Shown piece by piece: positions 26,676-53,613 of a stretch of DNA of 64,000 bases. The DNA lies in assembly GCA_041753315.1 (NCBI GenBank), contig JBGSUV010000142.1:139-64138 (forward strand), written 5' to 3'. The position numbers were made by a program, and so were the translations under genes. Position 1 is the first letter of the stretch. Each line of letters begins with the position of its first letter. The notes beneath the pieces are model-generated. The model ran no database searches, was not told the DNA's origin, and was given only the letters and a program-made list of their open reading frames with translations. This DNA comes from Pirellulaceae bacterium. GTDB lineage: Bacteria; Planctomycetota; Planctomycetia; Pirellulales; Pirellulaceae.

Positions 26676-26676
26676 A

Positions 26677-31100: not shown

Positions 31101-33257
31101 GGAGATACCGAACGAGTTATCGCTGTCAACACTCAGGATTTGCTGGGGACGGCTACGATCGCTGCTGGCGGCACGGAAGTCATCTACTCAGCCGGCACTG
31201 CCTTTCAACATCTCATTGCTGGCCAGACAGCCACCGAGACTTTTACTTATACAATGGCAGACGCGTTTGGTGCACTGTCGACGGCTAGCGTTGTAGTTAC
31301 CATCACGGGCATTACCGACGGCCCAACAGCTAACAATGACCTAGTGACCGCCATGGAGGATGGTGGACCAATCGTGATTGACGTTTTGGCCAACGACACT
31401 AGCGATCTCGGTCCAGGCAGTTCACTAACGATCTCGTCAATTGATGGAGCGGGTCAGTACGCTTCCATGACACTGATCTTGATTTATGGGGTCGGTGTCG
31501 GCCAGTACAATCCTGGCTTTCAACGCATGCTCGGTCAGGCTTCTATTGCCCCGGATGGCCGCAGCATCCTGTACACTCCCATGCAAAGCCTGAACGCTGG
31601 TGAAGTTGCTAACGATCTGTTCAAGTACACCATAACTGGAGATGGTGGCGGCACGTCGACCGGTATCGTAACTGTGACTGTCACCGGCGCAAACGATGCT
31701 CCAACCGCAGTGAATGATGTGGTTTCCGTTTCGTCTGCTGCTGCTCCAACGATCATCGATGTCCTCGCCAACGATCTAGACCCAGACAACCGCATTGACC
31801 CACCACTACCGCCATCATCAGAGCTCGGTCCGTGGGACGTAACACCTGTCGACACTCCCGATACCAATATCATTAGTGAAGTGAACGCTGGCGGACTACA
31901 AGGTTCTGTAGCGATTTCGCCGAACGGAGACGATATTGTATACACGGTTGGCGGCGACTTATTGAATTTGCCTTTCGGTGCTACTGCCGCAGAGTCCTTC
32001 ACTTACACGATGAGGGATAGCGCAGGGGCAGAGTCCACAGCGACAGTGACGGTAAACATGAGCGGTACGAATCATGCGCCGATGGCTGCCCCCGATACGG
32101 CAGAGACCTTTGAAGATGGCGCTCCCATCACGATCAACATCTTGGCCAATGATGTCGACTTGGATACGCCTTTTGGAGACATGCTGTCACTGCACAGCGT
32201 CAATAGCAACGGTCTGCAGGGATCTATTCAGGTCGAGGGGACAAACATCGTGTATTCTGTGGGTAGTGCGTTCCAGAATTTACGCGCTGGCAGCATGGCC
32301 ACCGATGTCTTTAGCTACACAGTTATTGATAGTGTTGGTGCGATGTCCACAACTCAAGTCACGGTAACTGTCACCGGAGCCAATGACGCACCAGTAGCCG
32401 TAGCAAACTCGCTATCGCTTTCGGAAGACGCCGCTCCCACAACCATAGCCGTATTGGCCAACGATACGGATGTCGACAGCGGCGATACCACATCCGTGCT
32501 ATCCGTCCAGGGAGTCGATTTGCTAGGCACAGTCGTCGTCGCCCCTGGCGGAACTGGCGTGATCTATACCGTTGGGAGTGCGCTTCAAGCCTTGAATGCT
32601 GATCAGACCGCAACCGAGACCTTTACTTACACGGTGGTTGACAGCGCGGGAGCTCAAGCGACGACAACGGTAACGGTGACCATTATTGGCGCCAACGAGC
32701 CGGTCATCTACGTGAATCCACCAGCTCCACCGGCAGGTGCCATCGTAGGCACTGCGGGTGATGACATTTTAAACGGGACGGCCGCAGCTGACATCATTTA
32801 TGGGCAGCTTGGCGATGACGAGATCGATGGTGGCGGAGGTAACGACACAATCTTTGGTGGTGGAGACCGCGATACCTTAAACGGAGGTGTCGGCAATGAC
32901 ATTCTCAGCGGTGGGGCCGACAGCGATGATTTGATCGGTGGAGCGGGGGCTGATATTTTCAGATACTATTTGGTAAGCGAATCAACGCTGGCCGACTCCG
33001 ATAAGATCAAGGACTTCAAAGGTTCCGAAGGCGACAAGATCGACTTGAGTTTGATAGACGCCAATTACTTGGTCGGCGAGAACAATGCATTTGTCATCAC
33101 CTCTAGCTTTACGATGGTCGCTGGGCAACTAGTTATTTCGTCGACCAGCTCTGGGGTTTACTGGGTTAGGGGAGACGTCAATGGCGACGGCATCGCCGAT
33201 TTGCAAATCGAAGTCAGATCTTCGGTAGCCTTGACGGCTAATGATTTTATTCTATAA
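28128..33257 (+). CDS. Large surface protein/adhesin: planctomycete extracellular motif, RTX Ca-binding repeats, 10 Ig/cadherin-like repeats, serralysin-like C-terminus
   Basis: ERLEARNLLA motif; GGxGxDxL nonapeptides; ten (V/I)LxND units; ends DVNGDGIADLQIEV...DFIL; start at 28128 rather than 27906. Confidence 0.88.
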   Translation: MSKRQNRRSRVIERLEARNLLAGVILQSVTADGGTQLSLTYEVRELTTELNVGFYRNSGSFLADAVLLDNATLSDPADLSMGVHVKNFSIGSGVDQIALPGAGAAEVQQDYAIWAVANPTIPDLESAVVFAGVYHAPLSDIFIHGRNIADSVAIDSNYRVTLNGAMKRYTSSDVTGFRVRGHDGNDVVNASTAAKVLSIYGGTGNDVLKGGGAADWLLGGHGDDELVGGRGNDTLDGGEGSDVYQLAGTNQGADTYIDGGTGGVDQIIATANFTNISLGASFSSASGIESISANGFTSVKILGTSGSNTLNFSALSLNGVSIIDGLAGADNILGSDGDDLLRAGTGNDAVDGGGGTDIAHFAGAMTTYSIVQTGDVVIVKDLAKTVNGNDGTDTLRGIEVLRFLDGDYNLTGPTNSPPLALPDSITVSDTSGATVVQVLANDTDIDVGDTKRVVSVDSVGVRGIVQIPSGGTAVLFSPNNAYGYLRAGETAVETITYTMADAAGAQSTATLVVTVTGTNSAPVAVADNASVSENASSTLLDVLVNDTDVDVGDTKIVLSVYGDGYPADWYVVCTYGVCAPMTIPAVPAIQGSVTVAPDGHGVIYSPGNAFQYLRAGQSVTERFTYTMADSAGAIATTWVTVTITGANDAPIAAPDSPIVAKNSAPVTINVLANDSDADAGDTKTVLSLDTSTLLGTATISAGGTSVIYSVGTSFLDLQPGQVAIETFSYTMSDAAGAQSTASVTVRINGTNSAPIAIADVGTAIENGEPLTIDVLTNDTDEDLGDSKTVIAVNGTGLLGAVSVAPGGTAVIYTVGNAFQSLAHGATASESFTYTMRDSLGAQSTATVQVTVTGANDAPGAVENTATASEDGPPITIDVLANDSDLDAGDSMQIVSILGNNLQGSIAIAPDEASIIYSVGDAFQSLRAGATATEVFSYTMRDAAGATSTANVTVTITGVNDSPVAMENVFTITEDAMATTLAVLANDTDPDVGDTERVIAVNTQDLLGTATIAAGGTEVIYSAGTAFQHLIAGQTATETFTYTMADAFGALSTASVVVTITGITDGPTANNDLVTAMEDGGPIVIDVLANDTSDLGPGSSLTISSIDGAGQYASMTLILIYGVGVGQYNPGFQRMLGQASIAPDGRSILYTPMQSLNAGEVANDLFKYTITGDGGGTSTGIVTVTVTGANDAPTAVNDVVSVSSAAAPTIIDVLANDLDPDNRIDPPLPPSSELGPWDVTPVDTPDTNIISEVNAGGLQGSVAISPNGDDIVYTVGGDLLNLPFGATAAESFTYTMRDSAGAESTATVTVNMSGTNHAPMAAPDTAETFEDGAPITINILANDVDLDTPFGDMLSLHSVNSNGLQGSIQVEGTNIVYSVGSAFQNLRAGSMATDVFSYTVIDSVGAMSTTQVTVTVTGANDAPVAVANSLSLSEDAAPTTIAVLANDTDVDSGDTTSVLSVQGVDLLGTVVVAPGGTGVIYTVGSALQALNADQTATETFTYTVVDSAGAQATTTVTVTIIGANEPVIYVNPPAPPAGAIVGTAGDDILNGTAAADIIYGQLGDDEIDGGGGNDTIFGGGDRDTLNGGVGNDILSGGADSDDLIGGAGADIFRYYLVSESTLADSDKIKDFKGSEGDKIDLSLIDANYLVGENNAFVITSSFTMVAGQLVISSTSSGVYWVRGDVNGDGIADLQIEVRSSVALTANDFIL

Positions 33258-38543: not shown

Positions 38544-39138
38544 GTTGATATCGCAGAGGACGCATGGCGAGAGTCGAAAGATCGTGAAGTGATGCGGTTG
38601 TGTTCAGCTCAACGCGACGAAGAAGCTAAGTAACGCGAACACTGAAAAACTCACACGCGTCTTGCAATGCCATGGAAGACTCTGGGGGCATCCAAGGGTG
38701 AATGGGGATGGATTGGATTGTCAGGCACATTCGCTAAACTGAACAGCGTATTATAGCTCTCACATCATTCCTACAAGCAATTTGATAGACCAGGGTATTC
38801 TGGTGGGCCGCTGTTGCCGGATTTGTGGAATGTCGAAGGCGAATGAGCAGTTCGGTGGGAAAGGGGCGCGGGCGGTGACCTGTCGTTCGACTTCGATTGT
38901 CGAGATCGATTTGTTGCGAGGCGGGCCTCGACTGCCCATCAACGATCTGCCGACATGCGATTATTGCGTGACCGTCTTTCGAAAAGCCAATGCGCCAAGT
39001 GTGGAAGCGTGGCCGATTGCCTTGCACGATGCCTTGCCGGACGTTCCAATTCCTTTGAAGGGAGGCTTTGCTGACGCCAAGCTTGACTTGAAGGCGCTGC
39101 TGGATCGCGTTTATGATGCGGCGGGTTACGAAGATTAG
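38544..39138 (+). pseudogene. Mosaic relic: cas3 fragment + copy of 50148-50451 + DUF4058-like C-terminal fragment
   Basis: 38544-38608 matches 47657-47721 (63/65); 38608-38886 is homologous to 50148-50451; then VEIDLLRGG...DLKALLDRVYDAAGY. Confidence 0.85.
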
Positions 39139-39160
39139 TTGCGTCCCCGAGGTACTAGTG

Positions 39161-40633
39161 ATGAGTATGTTGCGTGAAATTTTGCTCTTGATGCTGCTGG
39201 TCATGGCACGGCCGATTCTAGCAGGCGAGTTTGACGTGGTCGATTCATTCGTACAGCAACGGATGAAAGAGGTCGGCGTTCCAGGCGTGGCAGTCGCTAT
39301 CGTAAAGGAAGGCAAGATCGTTTATACGAAAGGGTACGGTGAATCATCGCCCGGGGTGCCGATCACTCCACAGACTCCGTTTCTTTTGGCATCGCTTACA
39401 AAGTCCTTCACAGCTTTGTCCGTCATGCAATTGGTCGAGGAGGGGAGGATCGATCTAGACACGCCGATAACGAGATACCTGCCGCAGCTAAACTTCGCCG
39501 ATGAAGCCTCAGGAAAAATCACGGTTCGGCAACTACTAAACCATACAAGCGGCTTCTCGACTTTGTCGGGACGCAAACACTTCTTTTCTCGTGATGTCGG
39601 GCAGGAAGCCCTGGAACGTAGCGTCCGCGATCACTCTGCTGAACGGTTGACAGCCTTACCCGGCAAAAAATTTCAGTATTCGAACGTAAACTTTAACATG
39701 GCCTCTCTGATTGTCGCGAAGGTCTCTGGTCAAACCTTCGAGCAATACATCCGCGAGAGGATATATGCTCCCCTGCAGATGACCAGCAGTTTTACGAACG
39801 AAGCCGACGCTCAGACGCATGGATTGACGATCGGTTATCGCTTTTGGTTCGGCATCCCCATAGCGGCAAACGATATCCCATACTCTCACACAGGCTTGGG
39901 ATCCGGAGGACTTTTGTCTTCAGCGGAAGATTTGGCTCGATACACACTCGCCAATTTGGGCGATGAGAGTGGTCAAGTGCTTTCGCAGACAGGCTTTGCC
40001 GAGATACACAAGCCCGGAGTTCACATCGTCCGGGACATTCATTACGGCCTTGGTTGGCTAGTGAGTAAGAAGCCTGATGGGCTTGTCATATGGCATCGCG
40101 GTGACATGGAGTGTGTTCACACCGACATCATGATGGCGCCAGACGAAAAGATTGGAGTAGATACATTGATGAACGTAAACTCTCCGAGCAAAGGTACTCA
40201 ATTGATTAACATCGCTGAAGGTGTGTTCGGTCTGGCGCGAGGCAAAGATCCGAACATGGTCAGTGACGACCCGGTACCTACGATAGTGATGTTCACGATC
40301 CTAGCGATCTTCATTATTCAAGTCGTGTGGGGATGTCGTTTTATTCTCAAACTTCGCCGTTGGCAGCGTCAGCCCGAGACGAAACCGAGACGCTGGAGGA
40401 TATTGATCGGAGTAATATTCTCGGTCGTTCTCAATCTGACGATAGCCATCGCGATCTTCATGGTGCTACCGGCTGTATTTGAAACTCCATATTCCAGCAT
40501 CTATTTATTCATGCCAGACGCATTTGTGATCACAGCCCTATCCGGCGGCTTCGCCCTGCTGTGGGGCGTAGCAAGAAATTTCCTGGCGTTTCGCCAAGTC
40601 ACCAAGACCGCTCTGACTGGTAAGGGGGCTTAA
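39161..40633 (+). CDS. Serine hydrolase, beta-lactamase/class C PBP family, with C-terminal TM helices
   Basis: SLTK (SxxK), YSN and HRG motifs; signal peptide; three C-terminal TM segments. Confidence 0.9.
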   Translation: MSMLREILLLMLLVMARPILAGEFDVVDSFVQQRMKEVGVPGVAVAIVKEGKIVYTKGYGESSPGVPITPQTPFLLASLTKSFTALSVMQLVEEGRIDLDTPITRYLPQLNFADEASGKITVRQLLNHTSGFSTLSGRKHFFSRDVGQEALERSVRDHSAERLTALPGKKFQYSNVNFNMASLIVAKVSGQTFEQYIRERIYAPLQMTSSFTNEADAQTHGLTIGYRFWFGIPIAANDIPYSHTGLGSGGLLSSAEDLARYTLANLGDESGQVLSQTGFAEIHKPGVHIVRDIHYGLGWLVSKKPDGLVIWHRGDMECVHTDIMMAPDEKIGVDTLMNVNSPSKGTQLINIAEGVFGLARGKDPNMVSDDPVPTIVMFTILAIFIIQVVWGCRFILKLRRWQRQPETKPRRWRILIGVIFSVVLNLTIAIAIFMVLPAVFETPYSSIYLFMPDAFVITALSGGFALLWGVARNFLAFRQVTKTALTGKGA

Positions 40634-40965
40634 GGGCAGAGCGACCACAAATCTCCTGGATGAAAAAGTCGCCATCAAAAATAGTCACGATCCGGTCAAT
40701 ATCGGCATCACCGTATTCGATGACAAAATCGATATCATGGGTTGATCGCGGGATACCCCAATAGTTGCTTGCCATTGAACCAACCAACATGTATTCAACC
40801 GACGATTGATTCAATCGTCGCAAGCAATCTACCAGCAATTCCTGTTCAGTCATTGCGTATCCCAGCGTTGACTTGAGACGTGTACGCCAAGCGTATTCGT
40901 TGATGGAGCTGTTCTTCGACAAAGGCCTTGTCTGCGTCCGGGTAGCGTCCGCGAATGCCGTCGCG
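40616..40965 (-). pseudogene. Internal fragment of the nucleotidyltransferase/antitoxin pair, duplicate of 56766-57115
   Basis: 350-bp direct repeat with about 11 substitutions (~97%), truncated at both ends. Confidence 0.92.
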
Positions 40966-41268: not shown

Positions 41269-41655
41269 CTATATGTCAGGCTTGTCAGTTCTCGGTTCGA
41301 GCGCAATCACGATTTGGCTCCCGATCGCAGAAGCGTAGCGTTGCAAGTAGGCGAGAGTCGGGTTCGGAGCCTTGCTATTCTCCAGTCTCGACAGCGCCGA
41401 CTTGAGAATTCCCGTTCGGACCGCCAGTTCTGCAAGCGAAACTCCCGCGGCCTCTCGAGCTTCGCGAAGTTTCTGAACGATGGCCACAGCTTCCTCGCAG
41501 GCCTCGACAACCTTTGGTGCCATCATCTTTGCCGCCGCGATATTGTCCTCTTTTGCTGCCGCTTCCTCCGCCAAAGCGAGCTGAAACTGCTTACGTTCTT
41601 CATCGGTCATGGATGGGTATGCATTACGATCTGGCTTGAGCATGTTTTCATCCAT
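41269..41655 (-). CDS. XRE-family HTH protein (HigA-like antitoxin)
   Basis: REAAGVSLAELAVRTGILKSALSRLEN...NPTLAYLQRYASAIG HTH_3 pattern. Confidence 0.85.
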   Translation of the reverse strand: MDENMLKPDRNAYPSMTDEERKQFQLALAEEAAAKEDNIAAAKMMAPKVVEACEEAVAIVQKLREAREAAGVSLAELAVRTGILKSALSRLENSKAPNPTLAYLQRYASAIGSQIVIALEPRTDKPDI

Positions 41656-41707
41656 TTAATTAGTCTGCGATCCAGCGAGCGCGATCAGTCGATTCCAAGA
41701 TAGGTAG

Positions 41708-41953
41708 TTAGTCAATTTCGTAAGCTGTTCGAGGTTCGATCTGCGTATGCTCATGATCCAGCCAGTCAAATACGCAGAACAGGACTCGGCCATCGTCAGT
41801 GACACCAACGACTGCGGGACGTCCTGTACTCCGACTCTTAGTTCGTTCGCTCCGTGCGTCCTGCACAACAGCTTCAAAATCCTCGGGAGCTACACCGTTA
41901 TCCGCTAAATGCTCGACGATTTCGTCCGTCCAGTGAAAGAAATAGTAGGGCAA
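41708..41953 (-). CDS. BrnT/RelE-fold-like toxin
   Basis: 81 aa from a TTG start with AAGGTG RBS; FHWTDEIVEHLADNGVAPEDFEAV...GRVLFCVF...RTAY pattern; directly upstream of the HTH gene. Confidence 0.7.
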   Translation of the reverse strand: MPYYFFHWTDEIVEHLADNGVAPEDFEAVVQDARSERTKSRSTGRPAVVGVTDDGRVLFCVFDWLDHEHTQIEPRTAYEID

Positions 41954-41994
41954 GGTGTTCACCTTAATGTTAACTCGCTGCGTGAGAAAAATCC

Positions 41995-42030
41995 AGTTCA
42001 ATGAGGCCGCGTTCTTTCGAACGCGGAAAG
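41995..42030 (-). CRISPR. Solitary CRISPR repeat variant (candidate crRNA-like RNA with spacer-like flank 41954-41994)
   Basis: CTTTCCGCGTTC-GAAA-GAACGCGGCCTCATTGAACT, 31/36 identical to the array repeat; 8-bp stem intact; all changes in the loop and the last 2 nt. Confidence 0.92.
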
Positions 42031-42031
42031 G

Positions 42032-42371
42032 GTGTCAACCAAGTTGGTTTCACAGCGGCGATGCCGCGGTATCCACATCAATCGACGCGGCCTAAAAGTT
42101 GAAGCACAACTGCATGACGAATCTGAATTGGCTTTGCAGGTCGACCGTGCTCTCAGGAAGTCAGCGACTTGGAAGAGTCTATCGGCGCATCAACGTCATG
42201 TCATCGTGCAATGCGTGATGCTCGACTGCTCTCCAGCAAGCGTAGCGCTCAAGCTTGGTCTAAAGGCGTCAAACGGTTGCAAGCTGGGCAGTTCGAATTC
42301 CCAAGCGACTGGCAACAGAGCCAGCCTTTCAAAAATTGAAGCGGCAGTTGGAGGTAAAAGATGGACAATGA
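42032..42371 (+). pseudogene. Sigma70 region-4-like HTH gene with an apparent +1 frameshift near 42272
   Basis: LSAHQRHVIVQCVMLDCSPASVALKLGLKAS continues in the shifted frame as TVASWAVRIPKRL...KDGQ-stop, which overlaps the next ATG; start uncertain. Confidence 0.5.
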
Positions 42372-42549
42372 GTCCCTACTTGATTGCTGGACGATGTTCA
42401 GTCGAGAACACGACAACATTTCTGTGGACCGAATGCTCTGCGCTCCCGAACTCCGCTCAAAGTTCCTTGTGTCGGTGGCAGGCAACGATCCGACCGCAAC
42501 CGCTCCAACGGCAACTAGTGGGACTGAGGAAGAACAAAAAAAATACTAA
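42361..42549 (+). CDS. Short hypothetical ORF, possibly truncated at an A8 tract
   Basis: MDNESLL...SVDRMLCAPELRSKF; stop follows the A8 run at 42536-42543. Confidence 0.35.
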   Translation: MDNESLLDCWTMFSREHDNISVDRMLCAPELRSKFLVSVAGNDPTATAPTATSGTEEEQKKY

Positions 42550-42553
42550 AAAA

Positions 42554-42569
42554 GCTAGAGAAATCCTAA
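42554..42569 (-). promoter_or_regulatory. Candidate PAM + partial protospacer (TTA-GGATTTCTCTAGC) for the solitary-repeat guide, in the cas7 upstream region
   Basis: Matches guide positions 1-6, 8-10 and 13; next to an A-tract and a weak GTGACC-N16-TACTGT promoter candidate (42574-42601). Confidence 0.55.
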
Positions 42570-42648: not shown

Positions 42649-43926
42649 ATGGCAAGTTCGTTCGATTTGTCTGCAGTACAAGAGGCCGTCAAAAGTGCGG
42701 CGGCATTGCGCCGTCGGAGTAAACTTCAATCGGCTGGTGGCGAAGGAGACAAAGTGTTTCCGCCGACGTATGCGAACGCGGTTTATGCGACAGAGAAACG
42801 TCGCGTCGAAGGATATGACAATCCTGTTGATTGTGTATTGCTTGATTCCGTGCAATCTCAAGCAAATCGAATGGAGGAAGCCTTGCAGCAAGCGGTCGAC
42901 GGTGGACGATTGACAATTCCAGTCATCGAAGTCGATTTCACGAAGTTCTTCCCCGGTGATGACCAACCGGAAGATTTGAGGCTGATTGATCCGGTCGGCA
43001 AGGTAACTTCGTTGCAAGCTCCGCACCGCATTGCTGACGCGATCCTGCGTGACAGCATTGTGATTGAGGATGGTAAGCAGTTTCGGGCGTCGAAAGAATG
43101 CGATGAATCGAGCTATGGTCAACGCCTGCGCCGCGTCTCGAACCAAGATGCGACAGTATTGTTTGAGTTGTGTCCCACGGCACTTATTTTTGGAATGTGG
43201 GATTCGACTGGACCAAAAGGTGGCTTGGGAGCAAAGTTTGAACGGGCATTGGTTAGCGAAATTATTGGTATCGATGCAACTCGCGGAGTTCGGTCTAGTA
43301 GCCGTATTGATCCGCTGGGAATACAAAAAGAAGCTGCCCTACTTTACGCGAGCAAAGAAGGCGGTTGGACACTAGATAAAGCTGATGCGAAAACTGAAAA
43401 AAGCAAACCAATGCTATTGGGCAAAGACGGGAAGCCTTCAGAAGCCAATCATGGCAATGTGACGCCGGACTTGAAGGACAAGAAGGGACAAGCTTACCAT
43501 GGTGGCGTAACGATTCATCATGCATTGCAAACGACCGTCATTTCGCTCGCTGCCCTTCGTCGATTGCGGTTTCCAATTGATGGGGAGTGGAGTGATGAAG
43601 CAGATCAGGCGGCTCGGACGGTATTGGTTGCAGTGGCGTTGTGTGCCGCGGCGCTGGCTGATGAATCGGGGCTGGACTTGCGTTCTCGATGTGTGCTCTA
43701 CGGCAATGAACCGCTGACTTGGTCATTGCTTGATCGCAAGCAACCCAAAGAACTCAGCTTGTCTGGAGACGAAGCAATTGAACTGCTGGATGCAGCAGTC
43801 GCCGCCGCTAAGAAGCTCGGACTTCCGTGGCGTGAAGAACCGTTGCAACTTCGTCCAAGTGAAAAACTGGTCAAACTCGTCGCCAAGAGTCAGCTACTCG
43901 CAGTGCAAAAGGGAGCAGAGGAATGA
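42649..43926 (+). CDS. cas7: Type I-G CRISPR-associated Cas7 (Csb1/GSU0053 family)
   Basis: KVFPPTY, LLDSVQSQANRMEEAL, PHRIADA, LIFGMWDS and SSRIDPLGI motifs. Confidence 0.95.
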   Translation: MASSFDLSAVQEAVKSAAALRRRSKLQSAGGEGDKVFPPTYANAVYATEKRRVEGYDNPVDCVLLDSVQSQANRMEEALQQAVDGGRLTIPVIEVDFTKFFPGDDQPEDLRLIDPVGKVTSLQAPHRIADAILRDSIVIEDGKQFRASKECDESSYGQRLRRVSNQDATVLFELCPTALIFGMWDSTGPKGGLGAKFERALVSEIIGIDATRGVRSSSRIDPLGIQKEAALLYASKEGGWTLDKADAKTEKSKPMLLGKDGKPSEANHGNVTPDLKDKKGQAYHGGVTIHHALQTTVISLAALRRLRFPIDGEWSDEADQAARTVLVAVALCAAALADESGLDLRSRCVLYGNEPLTWSLLDRKQPKELSLSGDEAIELLDAAVAAAKKLGLPWREEPLQLRPSEKLVKLVAKSQLLAVQKGAEE

Positions 43927-45656
43927 GCGATCTGACAATTGCTTGGGAGTATCTCACAGGCTACTGTGTCGCCAGCCATCCGAGCCGTCGCGATCGGGCA
44001 GAATGGCCACCGCATCCGGCCCGCGTTTACATGGCGCTCGCCGCCGCATGGTTTGAATCGGAACCGATTGCTGAAGATAAAGCGGCGCGAAAAGATCATG
44101 AAGCCGAAGGTGGGGCGTTGCGTTGGCTTGAGGGTTTGGGCGATCCGGAAATTTCCTTGCCACGAGTAGATCGAGAATTCGAGCGGACGAACGTTGACGT
44201 GTTTGTTCCAATCAACGATTCAGCAGGACCATCGGCTGCTATCCTGCAATCCGCACCTACGCTGACCCGCGACAAGCAACCTCGTTGCTTTCCACGAGTC
44301 TATGTTGGCGACGATCCATGCGTGCTATTGTGGCGTGATGTGAATGATTTAGAAACGCATCAAAATGCGTTATCACAGTTATGTAGCAAAGTCACTCGTA
44401 TTGGTCATTCTTCCTCGATGGTATCGATGTGGGTCGCGACTAATGACGAGCATCCACGAACCGAATCGGATTCGTTGATTCCAGATGTCACGTCCTCGGA
44501 CATGCGCGCGAGAACGATTCCAAACGGGTTTCTCGACATTTTGACCGACCGATTCGGCAAGGAGTGTCGCGATCAGCACGAGCTAATTGGCGAACAAATA
44601 GAACAACTGAAAACCCAGAAAAACAACGTCAAAGGCAAAGGAGCTAAGGAAGCCAAGGCCGAGATTGATTCACAGGTAGAAACACTGGAAGTTGAGCTTG
44701 CGAAAATATCGTTTCAGCCCGCCGTTCGCCCCACGACTTCTAGCTGGAGCGGCTATCGAAAACAGACTCTCATTGCGCACAAAACACTCGCGCACAGTGG
44801 TTTTGACACGGACGTTCTCGTACTCGTCGGCCAGCGGGATTTACGACTGTCTGCTGAAAGCACTTTGTTAGCTACAGAAACACTGCGCCGAACCATTATG
44901 AGCGTCATCCCAGACCCAGTGCCGAATTGGATCACCGGTCATCGAACGAGTGGTGAACCATTGCAAGATGGAGTAGGGCATATTGCGTGTTTTCCATTGC
45001 TGTCATCGGGATTTCCGTATTCGGACGGCCATCTTTTGGGCGTCGGAATTGTTTTCCCTCGCACGGTGAGTCGACAAGATCGCGGCTTGGCCATGCGTTC
45101 GCTGTTGGTTGAGCCACATGGAAGCCAAAAAGAAGTTCGATTGAAGTTTGGGCGACTTGGCGAGTGGAGTTTGGTTCCTCGCGATTGGACTGAAGAAAGA
45201 GTTGCACTTAAACCCGAAACTTGGACAGCGGCCCCGAATGGAAGGATGACGTGGGCTAGTGTCACGCCAGTCGTGTTGGATCGGTTCCCCAAAGCAGATC
45301 GGATCAAGCAACGAACACAATGGACCGATGAGGTAATTGGATTGGTCGCCAAAGCTTGTGAAAACGTTGGGCTCCCACGCCCAGCGGACATTGATGTGGA
45401 CACAACCTCGTGGCAATCAGGTTCCCCGCGAGCGTTACAAAAGCGTCGCCCATTGCGCGGACAAGATTCAAGTTCAACGAATCAAGCTGCGCTGGGTAAC
45501 GGGTTCCCTGCTTACCCAGCCAAGAGCGGAAACGGCTCGAAGCCGCAAGTTCATGTGTGGCTTAGATTCTCGGAAGCAGTCGTAGGACCAGTGATTCTTG
45601 GAGCTGGGCGTTACTTGGGTTACGGACTTTGCATGCCTTGGAGCGAACCACGATAA
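43923..45656 (+). CDS. csb2: Type I-G Csb2 (Cas5-Cas6 fusion, GSU0054 family)
   Basis: EWPPHPARVYMALAA N-terminus; WASVTPVVLDRFP; C-terminal GPVILGAGRYLGYGLC G-rich loop. Confidence 0.95.
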   Translation: MSDLTIAWEYLTGYCVASHPSRRDRAEWPPHPARVYMALAAAWFESEPIAEDKAARKDHEAEGGALRWLEGLGDPEISLPRVDREFERTNVDVFVPINDSAGPSAAILQSAPTLTRDKQPRCFPRVYVGDDPCVLLWRDVNDLETHQNALSQLCSKVTRIGHSSSMVSMWVATNDEHPRTESDSLIPDVTSSDMRARTIPNGFLDILTDRFGKECRDQHELIGEQIEQLKTQKNNVKGKGAKEAKAEIDSQVETLEVELAKISFQPAVRPTTSSWSGYRKQTLIAHKTLAHSGFDTDVLVLVGQRDLRLSAESTLLATETLRRTIMSVIPDPVPNWITGHRTSGEPLQDGVGHIACFPLLSSGFPYSDGHLLGVGIVFPRTVSRQDRGLAMRSLLVEPHGSQKEVRLKFGRLGEWSLVPRDWTEERVALKPETWTAAPNGRMTWASVTPVVLDRFPKADRIKQRTQWTDEVIGLVAKACENVGLPRPADIDVDTTSWQSGSPRALQKRRPLRGQDSSSTNQAALGNGFPAYPAKSGNGSKPQVHVWLRFSEAVVGPVILGAGRYLGYGLCMPWSEPR

Positions 45657-48600
45657 TGGACGTCAAAGCAGAACACTTTGCCAATTTTTTCCGCGAACTG
45701 CATTCAACGAGCCAAAGGCAGGCAGAGCCCTATCCGTGGCAATGCCGACTGGCTGAGCGTGCAACGTGCGGAGATTGGCCCGGCGCTATTGACTTGCCAA
45801 CCGGTAGCGGAAAGTCTGCGTGCATTGACATCGCTGTGTTTGCATTGGCCTGTCAAGCATCGTTGCCTGTTGAAGAGCGTAACGCGCCACGTCGTATTGT
45901 TTTCTGCGTGAACCGTCGTGTAATTGTTGATGAAGCGTACCAACGATCCCACAAGATTGCGGAATCGCTTTGGCGTGCTGAGCGGGACAATGATCCAGAG
46001 AAACCGACGCTGGTTGCTGTTGCAAAATGCCTTCGAAATATGGCGGGATATAGTGAAACCATCGCGGATGTTCCTCCGCTGGATGCATTGGAGCTGCGGG
46101 GCGGTATCTATCGAGACAATCGCTGGGCGAGATCTGCGGTGCAGCCAACCATCATTTGTTCGACCATTGACCAAATTGGTTCACGATTGCTGTTTCGCGG
46201 TTATGGTGTATCGTCCAGCGCAGCTCCGATTCAAGCGGCATTGTTGGCTTACGATAGCCTGATTCTGTTGGATGAAGCGCACATTAGCCAACCACTTCTA
46301 CAAACGGTCCAATGGACGCAGAGATATCTCGATCCAACGCGATGGGCGCGCGAGAAGTTTGGCCCCAAGCCGATGTTGTTTGTCCCGATGACTGCCACAC
46401 CAACGACGGAAATGCAAAATCGTGGTGTGATCCATCTTCAGGAGGATGATCGCTCCGACAAATACCCACTTATTGCTCGCCTCAAAGCGAAAAAACCGAC
46501 GCTGCTTCAGTCCGATAAAGATATTGTTCATGCTGCGATAAAAGCAGCCAAGGATCGTCTGATCGACGAGCCGAAATCAATTGGCATCATCGTAAATCGC
46601 GTTGCGTCGGCGAGAACTATCTATGCCGAGTTGCAAATGCTAACAAGCAAAACTCCTGAGCTAGTCGTTGAATTGGTCATTGGCTCGATGCGTCCTGTTG
46701 ACCGCGATAAACAGCAGGAGCGACTTCGAGAAACAATCGGACCGGAGCGGCCAAGAAAGACTGAAACGAACAGCGTTACGATTTCGACACAGTGCTTAGA
46801 AGTAGGTGCGGATTATGACTTCGACTTCCTCATCACCGAATGTGCGTCGCTTGATGCGCTGAGACAACGATTCGGAAGATTGAATCGTAAGGGGCGCGAC
46901 ATCGACGCCGAGGGGCTGATATTGATCAACGAGAAACAAGTTCAGGAAGAGGAAAAGCTTGATGATACAAAACTTGTTGATGCAATCTATGGCAACGCAC
47001 TCTCGCGAACCTGGAATTGGCTTAACGAAGTTGCGGAAGAAGGTCGCGTAGATTTTGGTCTGGATGCATTTGCAAAATTGCTTGTAGATCGCGGCGAGAA
47101 TGGCCGACCACCTTGTGAGTTGTTATCACCAGCAGCGAGCTTGAACTCTCCAGTGATGATGCCCGCATACGTTGACCTTTGGAGCCAAACGTCACCGAGA
47201 CCAGAGGTCGACCCCGATGTGTCGTTGTTTATTCATGGCCCTCAAGAGGCGATGCACGATGTGCGAGTCTGCTGGAGAACCGATCTGGAAAATAATGAGT
47301 CAACTGAAGCTTGGATCGACATCGTGTCCATGTTGCCACCAACTTCTGCTGAATGCATGAGCGTTCCGATATCGAGGTTTCGCAAATGGGTTCTTAGTGA
47401 AAGTGAATTCGGTGAGACTCAATCAGACATGCTTGCAGCTCAAGAAAATACTGGGTCGCAGAAAAAGGGAAATAAGAAGGAACAAGATTCACTTCACTCG
47501 ACGTTCATTATCTGGCGCGGAAATGAGAAATCGGTCAATGTAAATAGCGTGAAAAAACTCGGGCGATTGCGTCCCGGCGATACTTTGGTGTTGCCTGTTT
47601 CGGCAGGGGGATGGAGTGAGCTTGGACACGTTGTGGTCGAGGAGGGTGAAGTAGAAGTTGATATCGCAGAGGACGCATGGCGCGCGTCGAAAGATCGTGA
47701 AGTGATGCGGTTGTGTTCAGCGACGCGAAAGCTATATCCAGAAGGTGAGTCCGTCAATGACCTATTCGCTGCTGCGGCTGAAATTGACGAACCATTGCGA
47801 ATTGAGCAGTGGCGGGAGTTGCTCATTCGTGTCAGCACCGAACTATCGGAATCAGATCCGGAACTGAGCAATCGTTTTGAACGACTAGCAGACCGAAAAA
47901 CGGGTTTAGTCGTCGAGCGTTATCCCGACGGTTGCGGTGTGGTGTTGCTGAGCTGTCGACGCTTGGGGTCACACATTTGGTTCTTGCCACCTTTAGATGA
48001 AGGTGACGACGAACAATCACACATCAGCGGGCAAAGAGAATTGTCGTTGACTGAGCATACGCAAGATGTTGTGACATTCGCGAAACGATCATGTGAATTA
48101 TTGTTGCCAGAAGAGTTGTTGGAATTGTTTGCGCTCGCTTCCGAGTTGCACGACTTGGGCAAAGCTGATGAGCGGTTCCAAGCGATGCTGCGGCGAACGA
48201 GCTGCACAGATGCATGGCTGCACTGGCAAAATGACGGCTCGCTGTTGGCGAAATCAGAGGGTAAGGCCTTGTCACGAAAGGACGCGAATGCCGCGCGTAT
48301 ACGAGCGGGATTGCCGAAGGGTTTTCGTCACGAAATGCTATCGTTGCAACTCGCTCAGCGGTGCGAACAACTGCCGTCAGATGATCTGCAACGCGACTTG
48401 GTTCTTCATTTGGTCGGCTCGCATCACAAGCACTGTCGTCCCTTAGCACCAGTCGTAGACGATCCATGTCCGCCGGACGTTCAAGTTGGTAATCTGTACA
48501 TCAGCGGTGAAGATCGACAGCTCAATCTGTTACACGGCTTCGATTCAGGAATACCAGGGCGGTTTTGGAAGTTGACTCGACACTTCGGATGGTGGGCTTT

Positions 48601-48700
48601 GGCATATTTGGAATCAGTCCTTCGATTGGCGGATCAACAAGCAAGTGCATTGGCAGAATCGCGAACGAAAACAGAACCAGAAGCAGAGGGTAATTCGTAA
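45656..48700 (+). CDS. cas3: Type I-G Cas3 (N-terminal SF2 helicase, C-terminal HD nuclease)
   Basis: LPTGSGKS, DEAH and QRFGRLNR helicase motifs; C-terminal LTEH, LHDLGK, FRHE and SHH; ATG overlaps the csb2 stop. Confidence 0.95.
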   Translation: MDVKAEHFANFFRELHSTSQRQAEPYPWQCRLAERATCGDWPGAIDLPTGSGKSACIDIAVFALACQASLPVEERNAPRRIVFCVNRRVIVDEAYQRSHKIAESLWRAERDNDPEKPTLVAVAKCLRNMAGYSETIADVPPLDALELRGGIYRDNRWARSAVQPTIICSTIDQIGSRLLFRGYGVSSSAAPIQAALLAYDSLILLDEAHISQPLLQTVQWTQRYLDPTRWAREKFGPKPMLFVPMTATPTTEMQNRGVIHLQEDDRSDKYPLIARLKAKKPTLLQSDKDIVHAAIKAAKDRLIDEPKSIGIIVNRVASARTIYAELQMLTSKTPELVVELVIGSMRPVDRDKQQERLRETIGPERPRKTETNSVTISTQCLEVGADYDFDFLITECASLDALRQRFGRLNRKGRDIDAEGLILINEKQVQEEEKLDDTKLVDAIYGNALSRTWNWLNEVAEEGRVDFGLDAFAKLLVDRGENGRPPCELLSPAASLNSPVMMPAYVDLWSQTSPRPEVDPDVSLFIHGPQEAMHDVRVCWRTDLENNESTEAWIDIVSMLPPTSAECMSVPISRFRKWVLSESEFGETQSDMLAAQENTGSQKKGNKKEQDSLHSTFIIWRGNEKSVNVNSVKKLGRLRPGDTLVLPVSAGGWSELGHVVVEEGEVEVDIAEDAWRASKDREVMRLCSATRKLYPEGESVNDLFAAAAEIDEPLRIEQWRELLIRVSTELSESDPELSNRFERLADRKTGLVVERYPDGCGVVLLSCRRLGSHIWFLPPLDEGDDEQSHISGQRELSLTEHTQDVVTFAKRSCELLLPEELLELFALASELHDLGKADERFQAMLRRTSCTDAWLHWQNDGSLLAKSEGKALSRKDANAARIRAGLPKGFRHEMLSLQLAQRCEQLPSDDLQRDLVLHLVGSHHKHCRPLAPVVDDPCPPDVQVGNLYISGEDRQLNLLHGFDSGIPGRFWKLTRHFGWWALAYLESVLRLADQQASALAESRTKTEPEAEGNS

Positions 48701-49848
48701 TGTCCCAATACGTTCGATCAACTAATGATCTGAAACCGCTTAAGCTGGAAGGTATTGATGGCAGCAATCCCGCTGGTTTCCTGGCCACTTTAGGCGTTCT
48801 GGGAACGATCTGCCGTGATGCAGCAAATAACCAATCGCAACTTTCGTGGCATGAAAAGGCAGGCGTTTGGAATCCCGTTTTTCATTCTGAATGCGAAAGT
48901 GTCGCCGAACTATCACACCTTTTGGCCCAAGTGCTGCGGTGTCCATTTTCGCCTGACGCCACCTCAGAGGTTCGGCGTGAACAACGACAAAAGGCGTTCG
49001 ACACCAAGCGGACAGGATTGAAAAACTTGCAGGCCGAACTCAAGAAAAAAAAACTACGCGGCAAAGAACGTGACGCAGAATACGCGATCTCCGTTGCGCC
49101 AGTCGAAGCCGAGGTTGTCAAGCTGCGTTCAGATTGGCTTGCCGCCTTAAAAGCGTGTGTACCCTCTTCGGAACTCGCTCTTGGCAAACACCTCAATGCA
49201 GAGCAACCGGAATTGCGGGATGCGTTGCGTGACGCTGCAGAGATAGCAACCGTCGATTCGAGACAAACCGCTGATATGCTAGCGTCCTTTGGATCTGATG
49301 TGTGTTTGAAACCGAAGAGCGACAAAATGGACCCCACGCCCTTTTGCTTTACTTCCGGTTCGGGAAATCAGTATTTTCTTGATACCGCGCGCCGCCTGAG
49401 TGAAAGAATTACTGCCGCCTTATTGGAAAAATCACTTTCAACAAATGAGCCAGCACAAGATGAGAAGCTTTCCATGCGATGGGATCCGAACGAAGATCGA
49501 CGTTATGCTTTGATGTGGGAAAATCCAACTGCCAACGGCAACGAAGCCTTGACGAATTGGCCAATCAATCTTCTCGCGTATCACGGACTGCAACTGCTGC
49601 CGTCAGTGCCGACTGCGGCTGGGCTTAAGTCGGCAGGGTGGTCGAAGCACGAGCAAGAGAACTTCACTTGGCCCATTTGGACCGCTTTGCTAGGAATTGA
49701 TTGCGTCCGAACAATCATGTTGCAAAATTCTCAGAGGCTGTTCCAGCATCAGTGTGAAGTTGCTGCCATCTTCCAGTCAACGCGATTACAAGTCGGCAAT
49801 CCGCCCCTTCACAAGATCAATTTCTCACCCGCACGCAACGTGTATTAG
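48700..49848 (+). CDS. cas8g: Type I-G large subunit Cas8g (short Csb3-like form)
   Basis: GIDGSNPAGFLATLG, SGNQYF, MRWDP.EDRRYA and FTWPIW motifs; position after cas3 with a 1-nt overlap. Confidence 0.8.
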   Translation: MSQYVRSTNDLKPLKLEGIDGSNPAGFLATLGVLGTICRDAANNQSQLSWHEKAGVWNPVFHSECESVAELSHLLAQVLRCPFSPDATSEVRREQRQKAFDTKRTGLKNLQAELKKKKLRGKERDAEYAISVAPVEAEVVKLRSDWLAALKACVPSSELALGKHLNAEQPELRDALRDAAEIATVDSRQTADMLASFGSDVCLKPKSDKMDPTPFCFTSGSGNQYFLDTARRLSERITAALLEKSLSTNEPAQDEKLSMRWDPNEDRRYALMWENPTANGNEALTNWPINLLAYHGLQLLPSVPTAAGLKSAGWSKHEQENFTWPIWTALLGIDCVRTIMLQNSQRLFQHQCEVAAIFQSTRLQVGNPPLHKINFSPARNVY

Positions 49849-49910: not shown

Positions 49911-50174
49911 ATTAGGGAAGAGCTGGTTCAGCGAGGGTTCGACGAGCCAATCCAAGTCCGTCTCTGGTCCGCCGAAACCATGGTAGCAAGAAAGCTCAAG
50001 GGTTTCGTTTTACGCCGCAGCGCACCAAAACAACAACTTCCGTCCGCAAGTTCATGGGGAGCCACAATCACATTCAAAGAACCGCAAACTGGACCGATAA
50101 TGTTAGGTTACGGCAGTCATTTCGGCCTGGGCTTGTTTTCCCATCCACTCCAATGCGACGAAGAAACCAAGTAA
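49911..50174 (+). pseudogene. 3' fragment of a second, divergent csb2
   Basis: REELVQRGFDEP...ITFKEPQTGPIMLGYGSHFGLGLF; no start, stop codon immediately upstream. Confidence 0.8.
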
Positions 50175-51170: not shown

Positions 51171-53613
51171 GCTTCAATGAGGCCGCGTTCAATTGAACGC
51201 GGAAAGGCAATGTGCCCCGGCGTCTTGTCCTCCTCCCCGTCGCTTCAATGAGGCCGCGTTCAATTGAACGCGGAAAGTGAGACGCGGCCGAGAAGCTGGT
51301 TGCTGTCGTGGTTGCTTCAATGAGGCCGCGTTCAATTGAACGCGGAAAGTTCTTTGAAGTCCACTATCGAGTGCGACGGCTAAGAGGCTTCAATGAGGCC
51401 GCGTTCAATTGAACGCGGAAAGCTCGACCTGGCCAGCGAAATGCGAGCGGCGCAGGTGCTTCAATGAGGCCGCGTTCAATTGAACGCGGAAAGGCGGTCG
51501 CTACGGACTGATCGACACGAACTACTGGCTTCAATGAGGCCGCGTTCAATTGAACGCGGAAAGATGTCCATTTGAGCATTCGTGGCCACAAACCAATTTG
51601 AGCATTCGTGGCCACAAACCTGACGCTTCAATGAGGCCGCGTTCAATTGAACGCGGAAAGTTGTTCGCTGATTTCGCAGACGCTCAAATATTCCGCCGCT
51701 TCAATGAGGCCGCGTTCAATTGAACGCGGAAAGACGAAAAGATGAACGCAAAGTTAATCACAACGCGAGCTTCAATGAGGCCGCGTTCAATTGAACGCGG
51801 AAAGGTCGACTCGGATTCGCAAAAGTTCAATCTTGTAGACATGCTTCAATGAGGCCGCGTTCAATTGAACGCGGAAAGAATCTCCGTACTGACCTGGATG
51901 CCGTAGCCCGATTCGCTTCAATGAGGCCGCGTTCAATTGAACGCGGAAAGGACAAGGGCAGCTATAAAACGTCGGCTATCATCCTTGCTTCAATGAGGCC
52001 GCGTTCAATTGAACGCGGAAAGCCGGTATCGAGTAAGAAGGTTTTGAATTGAACATCACGCTTCAATGAGGCCGCGTTCAATTGAACGCGGAAAGCCCAC
52101 CAACGCAGAAAGAGAAAACGAAGGGCGAGACGCTTCAATGAGGCCGCGTTCAATTGAACGCGGAAAGTGGTTGAATGCCGTGGTCATTGCTTTCAAACCA
52201 TAGCTTCAATGAGGCCGCGTTCAATTGAACGCGGAAAGATCCTTTCCGCGTATAAAGCATCTTCTCTTTCGAGCGCTTCAATGAGGCCGCGTTCAATTGA
52301 ACGCGGAAAGGACACAACGCAGGTGGCCGCAAAGCTAACCAAGATCGCTTCAATGAGGCCGCGTTCAATTGAACGCGGAAAGGCAGCGTACTCGACCGCT
52401 TCGAAGTTGAACGACACGCTTCAATGAGGCCGCGTTCAATTGAACGCGGAAAGTGCGGTACTGCGGACACCGCTATCGTGCCGACTACGAGCTTCAATGA
52501 GGCCGCGTTCAATTGAACGCGGAAAGGTAGCTTGTTGTTCGGCACATGCGATCAATCCAGTCGCTTCAATGAGGCCGCGTTCAATTGAACGCGGAAAGCA
52601 CCTCCGGGAACGCATCGTGAACAACTTGATCAAGGGCTTCAATGAGGCCGCGTTCAATTGAACGCGGAAAGGCGCAGCAGTTGTACCAGGGAGCGGATAT
52701 CCGTGTTGCTTCAATGAGGCCGCGTTCAATTGAACGCGGAAAGCGAACGGCGCAAGGCCAATCTTGATCCATGGCCCGACGGCTTCAATGAGGCCGCGTT
52801 CAATTGAACGCGGAAAGCATGATCTCATCCGACAGTACGTCCAATTCCTTTTCGCTTCAATGAGGCCGCGTTCAATTGAACGCGGAAAGCGTAGCGGCTG
52901 ATCCCGATTCAGCCGACGGCGTCTTGCTTCAATGAGGCCGCGTTCAATTGAACGCGGAAAGCGCGCCGTCAACCGACAATCGTCCCGCCTTCACGTTGCT
53001 TCAATGAGGCCGCGTTCAATTGAACGCGGAAAGATGGCAGACGTACCGCAAGCTTTCACTGTGGCTGGAAGCTTCAATGAGGCCGCGTTCAATTGAACGC
53101 GGAAAGATCGACACCGTCTATCGCTGCCCATGCTGCGGATGCAGCTTCAATGAGGCCGCGTTCAATTGAACGCGGAAAGAATGGTGGCTTGTGGTGAGGG
53201 ACCATTACCACAAGAGCTTCAATGAGGCCGCGTTCAATTGAACGCGGAAAGATGGATTGAAGGGGAGATTTTAGGCCGAGTTAGCTGCTTCAATGAGGCC
53301 GCGTTCAATTGAACGCGGAAAGGCCTTCGCATTTCGCTGGTTGAGCGATGGGAACAATTGGCTTCAATGAGGCCGCGTTCAATTGAACGCGGAAAGTTCG
53401 CTTGCCACAACACGGTTTCCAGGAACTGCGCCGCTTCAATGAGGCCGCGTTCAATTGAACGCGGAAAGAGATCGACGGTTCGGGGTTGTCCGGATCGAAT
53501 ACGCGGCTTCAATGAGGCCGCGTTCAATTGAACGCGGAAAGTCAGCGGACAGCCAAGCAACGACGAGCGTACCAATGGCTTCAATGAGGCCGCGTTCAAT
53601 TGAACGCGGAAAG
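51171..53613 (-). CRISPR. Type I-G CRISPR array: 34 repeats, 33 spacers
   Basis: 36-bp repeat CTTTCCGCGTTCAATTGAACGCGGCCTCATTGAAGC (minus strand; ATTGAAGC 3' end); spacers 34-38 bp except one of 61 bp; counted by hand. Confidence 0.98.

Follow-up and report, generated by a model that had tools for sequence, protein, structure and literature searches.

A 64,000-nucleotide (nt) stretch of Pirellulaceae DNA (contig JBGSUV010000142.1, positions 139 to 64,138; hereafter "the window", whose own numbering is used below) carries a type I-G CRISPR locus, beside which a lone CRISPR repeat stands directly in front of a type II toxin-antitoxin (TA) operon. We propose, with a probability of roughly 0.62, that this repeat is psiR2, the 3' pseudo-repeat of a type I-G mini-CRISPR that was aimed at its own promoter and fused to the TA genes, and that the guide of this mini-CRISPR has been lost in the window. 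The best reading of the family to which it belongs would be a circuit of the CreTA, CrePA and CRISIS type with a type II TA pair as cargo. The comparative evidence includes 80 toxin loci in GTDB species-representative genomes, which are mostly metagenome-assembled (loci are given L numbers, genomes G numbers and contigs C numbers).

On the minus strand, positions 42030..41995 read CTTTCCGCGTTCGAAAGAACGCGGCCTCATTGAACT, a 36-nt variant of the type I-G array repeat CTTTCCGCGTTCAATTGAACGCGGCCTCATTGAAGC to which it is identical at 31/36 positions. The stem is unchanged, the loop has gone from AATT to GAAA, and the final two bases differ (GC to CT). When scored with a covariance model of such repeats, this psiR2 (41995..42030) gives 54.3 bits (E = 8e-14 in 13 kb), the top score among all pseudo-repeats examined, and its structure is a hairpin, CCGCGTTC-GAAA-GAACGCGG, followed by CCTC and an 8-nt handle, ATTGAACT (41995-42002). 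The effector operon (42649-49848, plus strand) consists of cas7g/csb1 (42649-43926), csb2 (43923-45656), cas3g (45629-48700) and cas8g (48700-49848), and together with minus-strand cas4g/cas1g (53820-55634) and cas2 (55648-56037) it is a type I-G system, all genes having been assigned with Pfam, NCBIfam and PADLOC. The CRISPR array (51171..53613), which has 34 identical repeats, is read on the minus strand because minus-strand cas2 and cas4/cas1 precede the 206-nt leader (53614-53819) that adjoins cas4g/cas1g, and because the repeat then ends in the handle ATTGAAGC. The lone repeat is therefore co-oriented with the TA genes, the repeat-TA unit being divergent from cas7g, and it is separated from the toxin TTG codon at 41953 by exactly 41 nt (41994..41954). 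The initial annotation had recorded a co-oriented repeat ending 41 nt before the TTG with no terminator in between, and both observations are borne out in the window. Its description of the repeat as solitary needs correction. There is a single strong copy, which lies 9.1 kb off the array and beyond the effector operon and does not belong to the canonical array, but a degenerate upstream handle, ATTGATGT, and a 44-nt pseudo-spacer are the remains of a two-repeat unit. None of the 33 array spacers matches the TA genes or the intergenic region, and none matches the genome above chance.

The toxin gene (41708..41953, minus strand) encodes 81 amino acids from a TTG start, which is supported because it aligns with the MPxYFFxW start of all 22 homologues; 40 homologues were found, and every invariant residue is retained in the window protein. 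Downstream, the antitoxin or regulator gene (41269..41655, minus strand) encodes 128 amino acids with a C-terminal XRE-type helix-turn-helix (HTH), and matches to HTH_31 (1.8e-10) and HTH_3 (1.7e-9) confirm the XRE-HTH gene that had been placed after the toxin. This gene pair is conserved among the relatives. The toxin could be identified only via fold comparison and profile scans of its homologues. The window protein itself has no match in Pfam (even at E <= 10), NCBIfam or PADLOC, and a sequence-profile search of the PDB returned nothing; 11/23 homologues match PF04365 (BrnT_toxin) weakly (best E 1.4e-4), and weak PF14076 matches are also seen among relatives. In Foldseek comparisons the AlphaFold2 model (predicted local distance difference test score 91.3) matches 7vd7_A, a Salmonella TA toxin, with a template-modelling (TM) score of 0.74, and 3u97, the Brucella BrnT toxin, with TM scores of 0.67-0.70, both at probability 1.0. 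The protein is predicted to be a toxin with a BrnT (RelE-like) fold. The earlier label of a BrnT-like toxin plus XRE antitoxin is reasonable as regards the fold, but the curated PF04365 threshold is not reached, so that the toxin is not BrnT at the Pfam level, and the antitoxin is not BrnA-like. Compared with the BrnT/BrnA system of Brucella abortus (PDB 3u97), the window pair shares the fold, the small size of the toxin, the toxin-first order and a DNA-binding antitoxin encoded downstream; it differs in a toxin that falls below every Pfam threshold, whose RNase activity is only putative here, and in an XRE-HTH antitoxin where BrnA is a ribbon-helix-helix protein.

Homologues of this toxin are nearly confined to Planctomycetota (80 loci; also 10/61 relatives). 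In a covariance search, 14/80 loci have a pseudo-repeat immediately in front of the toxin and on its strand, as against about 0.3 expected from the background density of hits, and the distance from the end of the pseudo-repeat to the ATG is 35-45 nt in 10 of the 14 (exactly 41 in six) and 75-81 nt in the other four. In a maximum-likelihood tree of the toxins the CRISPR-associated members form two supported clades, which take up 19/79 rows and contain Planctomycetota only: clade A (7 rows, support 100/97), which includes the window, and clade B (12 rows, support 100/99). The two clades comprise the 14 pseudo-repeat loci, the window, three partial cases and the array-less locus L031. Every member except L031 retains a pseudo-repeat or a remnant of one, whereas 0/60 other rows have one; resolution of the deep branches is limited by the shortness of the toxin, and one capture of a TA pair by a mini-array is indistinguishable from two. 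Divergent type I-G cas genes accompany 9/14 pseudo-repeat loci and none of the loci that lack a pseudo-repeat; a synteny search for repeat and TA genes beside I-G cas7 had been suggested in the initial annotation. Moreover, a second and unrelated kind of cargo follows similar mini-arrays in L119 (G168:C173) and L121 (G097:C208), where a VapBC-like pair, made up of a 79-81-residue antitoxin-like open reading frame (ORF) and a 130-residue PIN protein, begins 21-35 nt after psiR2. In L121 the handle junction reads TTGACC-N17-GATAAT, which is close to a consensus promoter; an mRNA started from it would be leaderless. Two supported clades, the empty remainder of the tree and the second TA type indicate that the link between repeat and TA genes is not due to chance, and a CRISPR-coupled toxin module is well supported by these comparisons. 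The opposite view, that the repeat is a relic without meaning, for example the last repeat of an array that decayed or was rearranged, and came to lie beside a TA operon by accident, could draw on the rearranged neighbourhood (a ghost copy of a CRISPR island lies at 38544-40915) and on the half-degenerate guide of the window. It is effectively refuted by the recurrence of the same junction, with the same spacing and the same sequence box described below, across Planctomycetota families at 45-78% toxin identity.

In the relatives the elements of the mini-array occur in the order of a promoter (P1), psiR1, a pseudo-spacer of 34-38 nt, psiR2, usually about 41 nt, and the toxin, and complete psiR1-spacer-psiR2 units with spacers of 34-38 nt are present at 14/15 loci. 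Two loci, G057:C44 and G031:C9, were read base by base. In both, the cas operon runs one way and the mini-array with the TA genes the other, and an AT-rich or consensus promoter is followed by psiR1 ending ATTGAAGC/T, a 34-38-nt spacer, psiR2, the toxin, another pseudo-repeat and the antitoxin, with one more pseudo-repeat in G031. At the first of these loci (L025, G057:C44) the mini-array is intact with the same spacer present twice, and the toxin homologue behind it has, at 2120-2144 of the minus strand, an in-frame TGA at the invariant Trp8 codon and looks inactivated. The psiR2 hairpin covaries over 16 loci (97.7% paired, 15 double changes, 0/500 shuffles as good). In 8/12 clade-B loci an intact pseudo-repeat separates the toxin cistron from that of the antitoxin, and in L057 another follows the antitoxin; the clade of the window has no pseudo-repeat between the cistrons. 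The handle of psiR2 is kept as ATTGAACT in the window, L038, L043, L045 and L065, and is degenerate in most clade-A relatives (CATTGCGCC, CGTTGATAT, CTTTGATCT). Seen from the side of the effector genes, this cas7g occurs in 11/401 genomes of the order, that of the window included, and among the ten others a divergent mini-array or pseudo-repeat is found upstream of cas7g in 5, with significant TTN-flanked targets in 4.

Pairing between the pseudo-spacers and nearby DNA shows where these guides would be aimed. The 300-400 nt upstream were scanned for matches anchored at the 5' end of the pseudo-spacer, with mismatches tolerated at every sixth base and nowhere else, and each spacer was compared with 200 shuffled spacers. 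Matches of 8-17 paired bases were obtained for 11/14 mini-arrays, each at p <= 0.01, and a promoter-proximal target read by eye in L065 makes 12/14; with targets for 5/7 further mini-arrays the total is 17/21, every pair detected by the scan having p <= 0.02. The protospacer adjacent motif (PAM) is TTA, TTC or TTT in 16/17 pairs, and mismatches inside the matched stretch fall at positions 6/12/18, position 6 being mismatched in about three quarters of pairs. Published work on type I-G reports a TTN PAM, Csb2 processing that yields an 8-nt handle, with Csb2 remaining on the 3' hairpin, and pairing in which every sixth base is unpaired and flipped out by Cas7 (PMC9638904); mismatches at position 6 are expected because that base is flipped out. 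The target lies 20-320 nt upstream of psiR1 and mostly abuts the TTGACA-like -35 element of P1, the putative promoter that reads into psiR1; its distance from the first cas gene varies between about 70 and 1100 nt. Spacer and target covary, since both differ from locus to locus. The geometry agrees with that shown experimentally for the CRISPR RNA (crRNA)-like RNA (crlRNA) of type I-C CRISIS, in which the target is adjacent to the -35 element, pairing extends over 16 bp with a mismatch at position 6, and the PAM is TTC/TTA (bioRxiv 10.1101/2024.12.27.630466). From its sequence, the mini-array is a self-aimed guide with the signature of CreA, CrePA and CRISIS.

A further example is found in the same genome as the window. 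Contig C65 (L009) encodes a second, divergent type I-G effector module, with Cas proteins 26-34% identical to those of the window, and has an intact two-repeat mini-array at 7154-7260, with cas3g at 3869-6409 (minus strand). The target of its spacer, TTA|CTGTTACAGAGGGGGAAAGTTT, lies some 50-85 nt upstream of psiR1 and is mismatched at 6, 12, 15 and 18; the spacer does not match the intergenic region of the window. No TA pair of the window's family follows this mini-array. Behind it come a T-run and an ORF of 19 codons, and a pair of RelE/ParE-like genes is oriented convergently with it.

When the window is aligned with these relatives, its guide half appears degenerate. The 5' handle remnant of psiR1, ATTGATGT (42075..42082, minus strand), aligns with the invariant psiR1 handle of 10 relatives (ATTGAAGC/T) and scores only 5.8 bits in the covariance search, and the pseudo-spacer remnant (42031..42074, minus strand), which contains the palindrome AACCAACTTGGTT, is 44 nt long where those of the relatives have 34-38 nt. 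We looked for a target of this pseudo-spacer with 36-44-nt versions, alternative handles, frame shifts, and 12-mers and 18-mers with mismatches at every sixth base; the intergenic region and the surrounding +/-4 kb gave none, and the 8.36-Mb genome none above chance. Upstream of the repeat no promoter is recognisable in the window except for a weak 9/12 match at 42176-42204. Thus the mini-array of the window has the general form of a crlRNA module, in which degenerate repeats flank a spacer-like sequence beside cas genes and outside the array, yet the partial pairing with a promoter that is seen in 17/21 related mini-arrays is absent from it. The guide looks decayed because the psiR1 handle is mutated, the pseudo-spacer is 44 nt long and there is no target, whereas psiR2, the 41-nt segment, the toxin and the antitoxin are intact. 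The window repeat therefore seems to be the psiR2 of a mini-CRISPR whose guide part has decayed, and the TA operon is most likely now an ordinary self-regulated type II module beside a cas operon, with residual action of Csb2 on read-through RNA at most. Decay is seen in close relatives as well: L108 and L109, with toxins 81% identical to that of the window, lack psiR2, L031 has a repeat-element insertion in place of the mini-array, and L030, L045 and L110 have no detectable target. Only one cultured carrier was encountered, Stieleria marina K23_9 (NZ_CP036526.1, about 7.505-7.513 Mb), which shares the cas7g-first layout and for which, too, no target could be detected. On the plus strand of the window, at 42305-42342, an exact ATTGAAGC follows the hairpin CTGGC-AACAGA-GCCAG in the direction of cas7g and could be a decayed pseudo-repeat; this candidate (42326-42342) reaches no more than 6.6 bits with the covariance model and has no target.

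The 41 nt between psiR2 and the toxin are understood best from the relatives in which they are separated from the mini-array. In L028, L036, L039, L057, L110 and L111 a GC-rich hairpin and T-run terminator follows psiR2 directly, and behind these six terminators the last ~40 nt are kept in the form T(T/G)Gnnn, 16-18 nt, TA(A/G/T/C)CAT, about 13 nt and ATG. From the six terminators together with this conserved downstream unit we infer a TA promoter, P2, inside the 41 nt, with an overlapping operator and a very short leader, which would place the repeat upstream of the toxin transcription start site (TSS). In the window (41954..41994, minus strand), where the spacing and the T(T/G)Gnnn-N16-18-TAnCAT unit are both conserved, the -35-like hexamer is TGGATT (41990-41995) and the -10-like hexamer TAACAT (41967-41972), with a 17-nt spacer between them. 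In the 41-nt form the psiR2 handle ends with the first T of the -35-like hexamer, and we propose that the spacing of about 41 nt is fixed because of this overlap. A palindromic box, GTTAACATTAAGGTGAAC (41957..41974, minus strand), overlaps the P2 -10 element; its consensus, GTT(A/T)nCAT-N4-GT(G/A)AAC, is present in both CRISPR-associated clades and absent from the other toxin homologues, and the XRE antitoxin probably uses it as its operator. It occurs once in the window, with no second copy near the cas promoter. An RNA hairpin that would hide the start codon was rejected as an interpretation of the box: its positions 4/5, which vary, show no covariation with the bases that they would pair with, and a DNA operator or -10 element is favoured for that reason. 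The sequence AAGGTG, which the initial annotation took for the ribosome-binding site of the toxin, is part of the palindrome, and relatives have ATATGTG at this place, which does not resemble a Shine-Dalgarno sequence; the CRISPR-associated clades have no Shine-Dalgarno sequence, whereas the other homologues have GGAGG-like ones.

These observations bear on the proposal from which the analysis started, that the repeat lies in the 5' leader of the toxin mRNA, so that cleavage by Csb2, or loading of Cas7 or Cascade on the handle and the following 41 nt, would gate the toxin by changing how stable its mRNA is or by covering the site where translation starts, and loss of Csb2 or Cascade would release it. 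The proposal is consistent with the co-orientation of repeat and toxin and with the lack of an intervening terminator in the window, which is shared by ten relatives and would permit read-through. Moreover, the spacing of about 41 nt that is fixed in 10 relatives is near the ~42 nt covered by seven Cas7 subunits (PMC9638904), the handle ATTGAACT is kept in the window and the four relatives named above, and pseudo-repeats stand between and behind the clade-B cistrons. The geometry of P2, however, accounts for the fixed spacing equally well, and the six relatives that have a terminator between psiR2 and toxin while keeping the last ~40 nt point to a promoter 3' of the repeat. In addition, the only candidate promoter upstream of the repeat in the window is the weak 9/12 match, the handle, which such gating requires, is degenerate in most clade-A relatives, and the window's clade has no pseudo-repeat between the cistrons. 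Gating through the leader is accordingly an unlikely explanation, and the relatives would predict that toxin transcription begins downstream of the repeat, ahead of the start codon.

A different use of the same nucleotides, in which RNA from the handle and the downstream 41 nt would guide Cascade to a site with a PAM at about 42531-42566, upstream of cas7g, so that the operon regulates itself, is highly improbable. A TTA-flanked GGATTT match of 6 nt, with scattered further identities, does exist on the minus strand at 42566. The match is broken at seed position 7, however, there is no downstream hairpin repeat to cap the guide, and anchored matches of this length are at chance both in the window (p = 0.5 against shuffles) and in 14 relatives (p >= 0.05). 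Searches with the 41 nt in the window (<=3 mismatches), with anchored seeds within +/-1 kb and across the whole 8.36-Mb genome likewise remained at chance level, and no target beyond chance was found at any of the 15 loci; the 41 nt, earlier called spacer-like, do not behave as a guide.

An RNA-level role of Csb2 is kept alive mainly by the interleaved pseudo-repeats of clade B and by the good preservation of psiR2 in the window. Given these interleaved pseudo-repeats, Csb2 would be expected to cut the clade-B TA mRNA. In its most developed form this idea would treat the TA genes as being in effect the spacers of the mini-CRISPR: Csb2 would cut psiR2, psiR3 (between the clade-B cistrons) and psiR4, hold on to the 3' hairpins and so determine how stable, or how well translated, the toxin and antitoxin mRNAs are relative to each other, and psiR2 of the window would be the remaining RNA-level layer. 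We regard this as a tentative possibility with the odds clearly against it. If it were true, the cell would be addicted to Cas6-type RNA processing plus DNA binding by Cascade, a two-layer coupling of TA and CRISPR at the levels of RNA and transcription that is not described for CreTA, CrePA or CRISIS.

The circuit that we favour for the intact relatives (for example L029, L054 and L057) is a transcriptional one. Csb2 would cut psiR1 and psiR2 and release a crRNA-like guide, and Cascade carrying this guide would sit on P1 without cleavage by Cas3, because the pairing of the guide is partial. Bound at P1, Cascade would repress the RNA from which the guide is made and which continues into the TA genes, and the TA operon would additionally be driven by its own P2 with the palindromic operator. 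Loss or inhibition of Cascade would then alter TA expression and result in addiction or an anti-anti-CRISPR response, as in CreTA, CrePA and CRISIS.

Several considerations weigh against this circuit. The architecture of the mini-arrays, the pairing of guide and target with its I-G PAM and 6-nt periodicity, the fusion to TA genes and the toxin fold can be read from the data directly, but P1, P2 with its operator, Csb2 processing, binding of Cascade without cleavage, repression of P1 and read-through are deduced from sequence, and the comparative material is almost entirely metagenome-assembled. Loci in which a terminator cuts the TA genes off from the mini-array still keep both guide and target, which argues for a function of the guide that needs no read-through. 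The guide could instead, or also, regulate the divergent cas promoter, which is about 70-160 nt from the target in L118-L120, and it is not obvious why raising toxin and antitoxin transcription together should be toxic. Finally, it is odd for a dead guide that psiR2 of the window is the best preserved of all the pseudo-repeats; it may still matter, for example in binding Csb2, or may have been converted recently from the array.

Some of these points lead to a rival in which the mini-array would do no more than regulate itself and, in the manner of CreR, the divergent cas operon, while the TA operon would be an ordinary addiction module carried along as a passenger without any CRISPR coupling. 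Mini-arrays that lack TA genes and have self-proximal targets are indeed found upstream of I-G cas genes (C65, L114, L118, L120), the target is about 70-160 nt from the cas7g ATG in compact intergenic regions, guides persist behind terminators that isolate the TA operon, and the TA box is not found near the cas promoter. Nevertheless, two toxin clades and an unrelated VapBC pair stand directly behind psiR2 (21-45 nt) in the same orientation, which is hard to obtain through co-travel alone. The pseudo-repeats embedded between and after the clade-B cistrons, and the 700-1100 nt that separate the target from the first cas gene in several loci, are also difficult to reconcile with regulation of the cas operon only. 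We therefore consider a passenger role doubtful, somewhat more so than gating through the toxin leader, and retain the self-targeting mini-CRISPR with TA cargo as the preferred reading.

The closest known systems are CreTA (Li et al. 2021; PMC8501985, PMC9458426) and CrePA, a CRISPR-repressed protein toxin with a CreA RNA from the type I-F system of Acinetobacter (bioRxiv 10.1101/2024.01.05.574328). Both share with the I-G modules a degenerate two-repeat mini-CRISPR beside cas genes with a toxin gene attached, partial pairing of the pseudo-spacer (seed and PAM) with a promoter that Cascade represses, or in type I-G is predicted to repress, without cleavage, and the expected addiction to Cascade or anti-anti-CRISPR response. 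They differ in that the present modules belong to type I-G (Csb2, TTN PAM) and to Planctomycetota hosts, and that the cargo is a complete type II TA pair (BrnT-fold toxin and XRE antitoxin, or VapBC) instead of an RNA toxin or a lone KilA-N protein. The I-G guide is also located upstream of and co-oriented with its cargo and targets the promoter that makes the guide itself, while the cargo has an apparent second promoter and operator of its own. Clade B has further pseudo-repeats between and after its TA cistrons, and the window, for its part, has no guide-target pairing. The initial annotation had contrasted the window with canonical CreTA; the family shows the logic of CreA and CrePA, with promoter-pairing spacers, TTN PAMs and mismatches at 6/12/18, and the window repeat corresponds to the 3' hairpin repeat of the guide.

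Type I-C CRISIS (bioRxiv 10.1101/2024.12.27.630466) resembles the I-G modules in a target adjacent to the -35 element, pairing over ~16 bp with mismatches at 6 and 12, a TTC/TTA PAM, and a guide gene and cargo in one block beside cas. In I-C, however, the solitary repeat unit follows the cargo inside the cas operon, whereas in I-G the mini-array comes before the cargo (a small TA pair) and diverges from the cas operon. With CreR (bioRxiv 10.1101/2023.03.10.532045) and the mini-arrays of Shmakov et al. 2023 (PMC10120712) the I-G modules have in common a degenerate mini-CRISPR upstream of and divergent from the effector operon and a target in the shared intergenic region; they differ in that the target abuts the -35 element of the mini-array itself and not a mapped cas promoter, lies at a variable distance (about 70-1100 nt) from the first cas gene, and is accompanied by a TA operon fused downstream. 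The papers on CreTA, CreR, CrePA and CRISIS and the mini-array survey make no mention of type I-G, Planctomycetota, or cargo of the BrnT or VapBC type, and the I-G, type II TA form of the CRISPR-repressed toxin modules appears to be new, although it is partly degenerate in the window.

Other features of the window were noted in passing. The ghost at 38544-40915 is the collapsed copy of a second CRISPR island. It comprises a 65-nt piece of cas3g with 97% identity to 47657-47721, some 340 nt that correspond to 50151-50451, and a 300-nt stretch of the nucleotidyltransferase gene, again with 97% identity (to 56766-57065), and has a serine hydrolase/beta-lactamase-like gene in between. One array spacer (51564-51624) reaches 61 nt through the tandem duplication of a 25-nt segment, ATTTGAGCATTCGTGGCCACAAACC. 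An intergenic gap at 59677-59936 is filled by three abutting heptamer arrays of about 260 nt in all (GCCCTAA x15, CTAAG(C/A)A x13 and CTTACCG x16), the first unit being telomere-type-like, and five tandem 35-nt units, AAGCAGGTGACTTCCCGCCGGGAGTCACCCTGGAA, each with a perfect GTGACTCCCGGCGGGAAGTCAC-type hairpin, occupy 26675-26848. An element resembling repetitive extragenic palindromes or miniature inverted-repeat transposable elements, TGTAGAACAATTGTCCCCAATTGTTT, occurs at 13373, 13579, 14572, 18685, 38248, 38283 and 57288, and the same element replaces the mini-array before the toxin in L031, a relative from the same genus. Lastly, a 1783-residue ORF (27906-33257) has at least six internal repeats of a unit of about 100-230 amino acids (DNA repeat family D11).

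CRISPR-repressed toxins such as CreTA, CrePA and CRISIS account for the resistance of costly CRISPR systems to loss and to attack by anti-CRISPRs, and they have so far been documented in types I-B, I-C, I-E, I-F and V-A. The modules described here would extend this principle to the poorly studied type I-G and to Planctomycetota, and also to ordinary type II TA pairs, which have apparently been recruited repeatedly, given the two BrnT-fold clades and the VapBC pairs. The guide-target pairs provide an independent read-out, from within genomes, of the TTN PAM and the 6-nt pairing periodicity of type I-G, and the repeats interleaved with TA cistrons offer a testable case of Cas6-dependent mRNA processing that may control a toxin. 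Taken as a whole, the family would represent a decay series that runs from intact modules, through those such as the window in which the guide is lost, to those that have lost the repeat.

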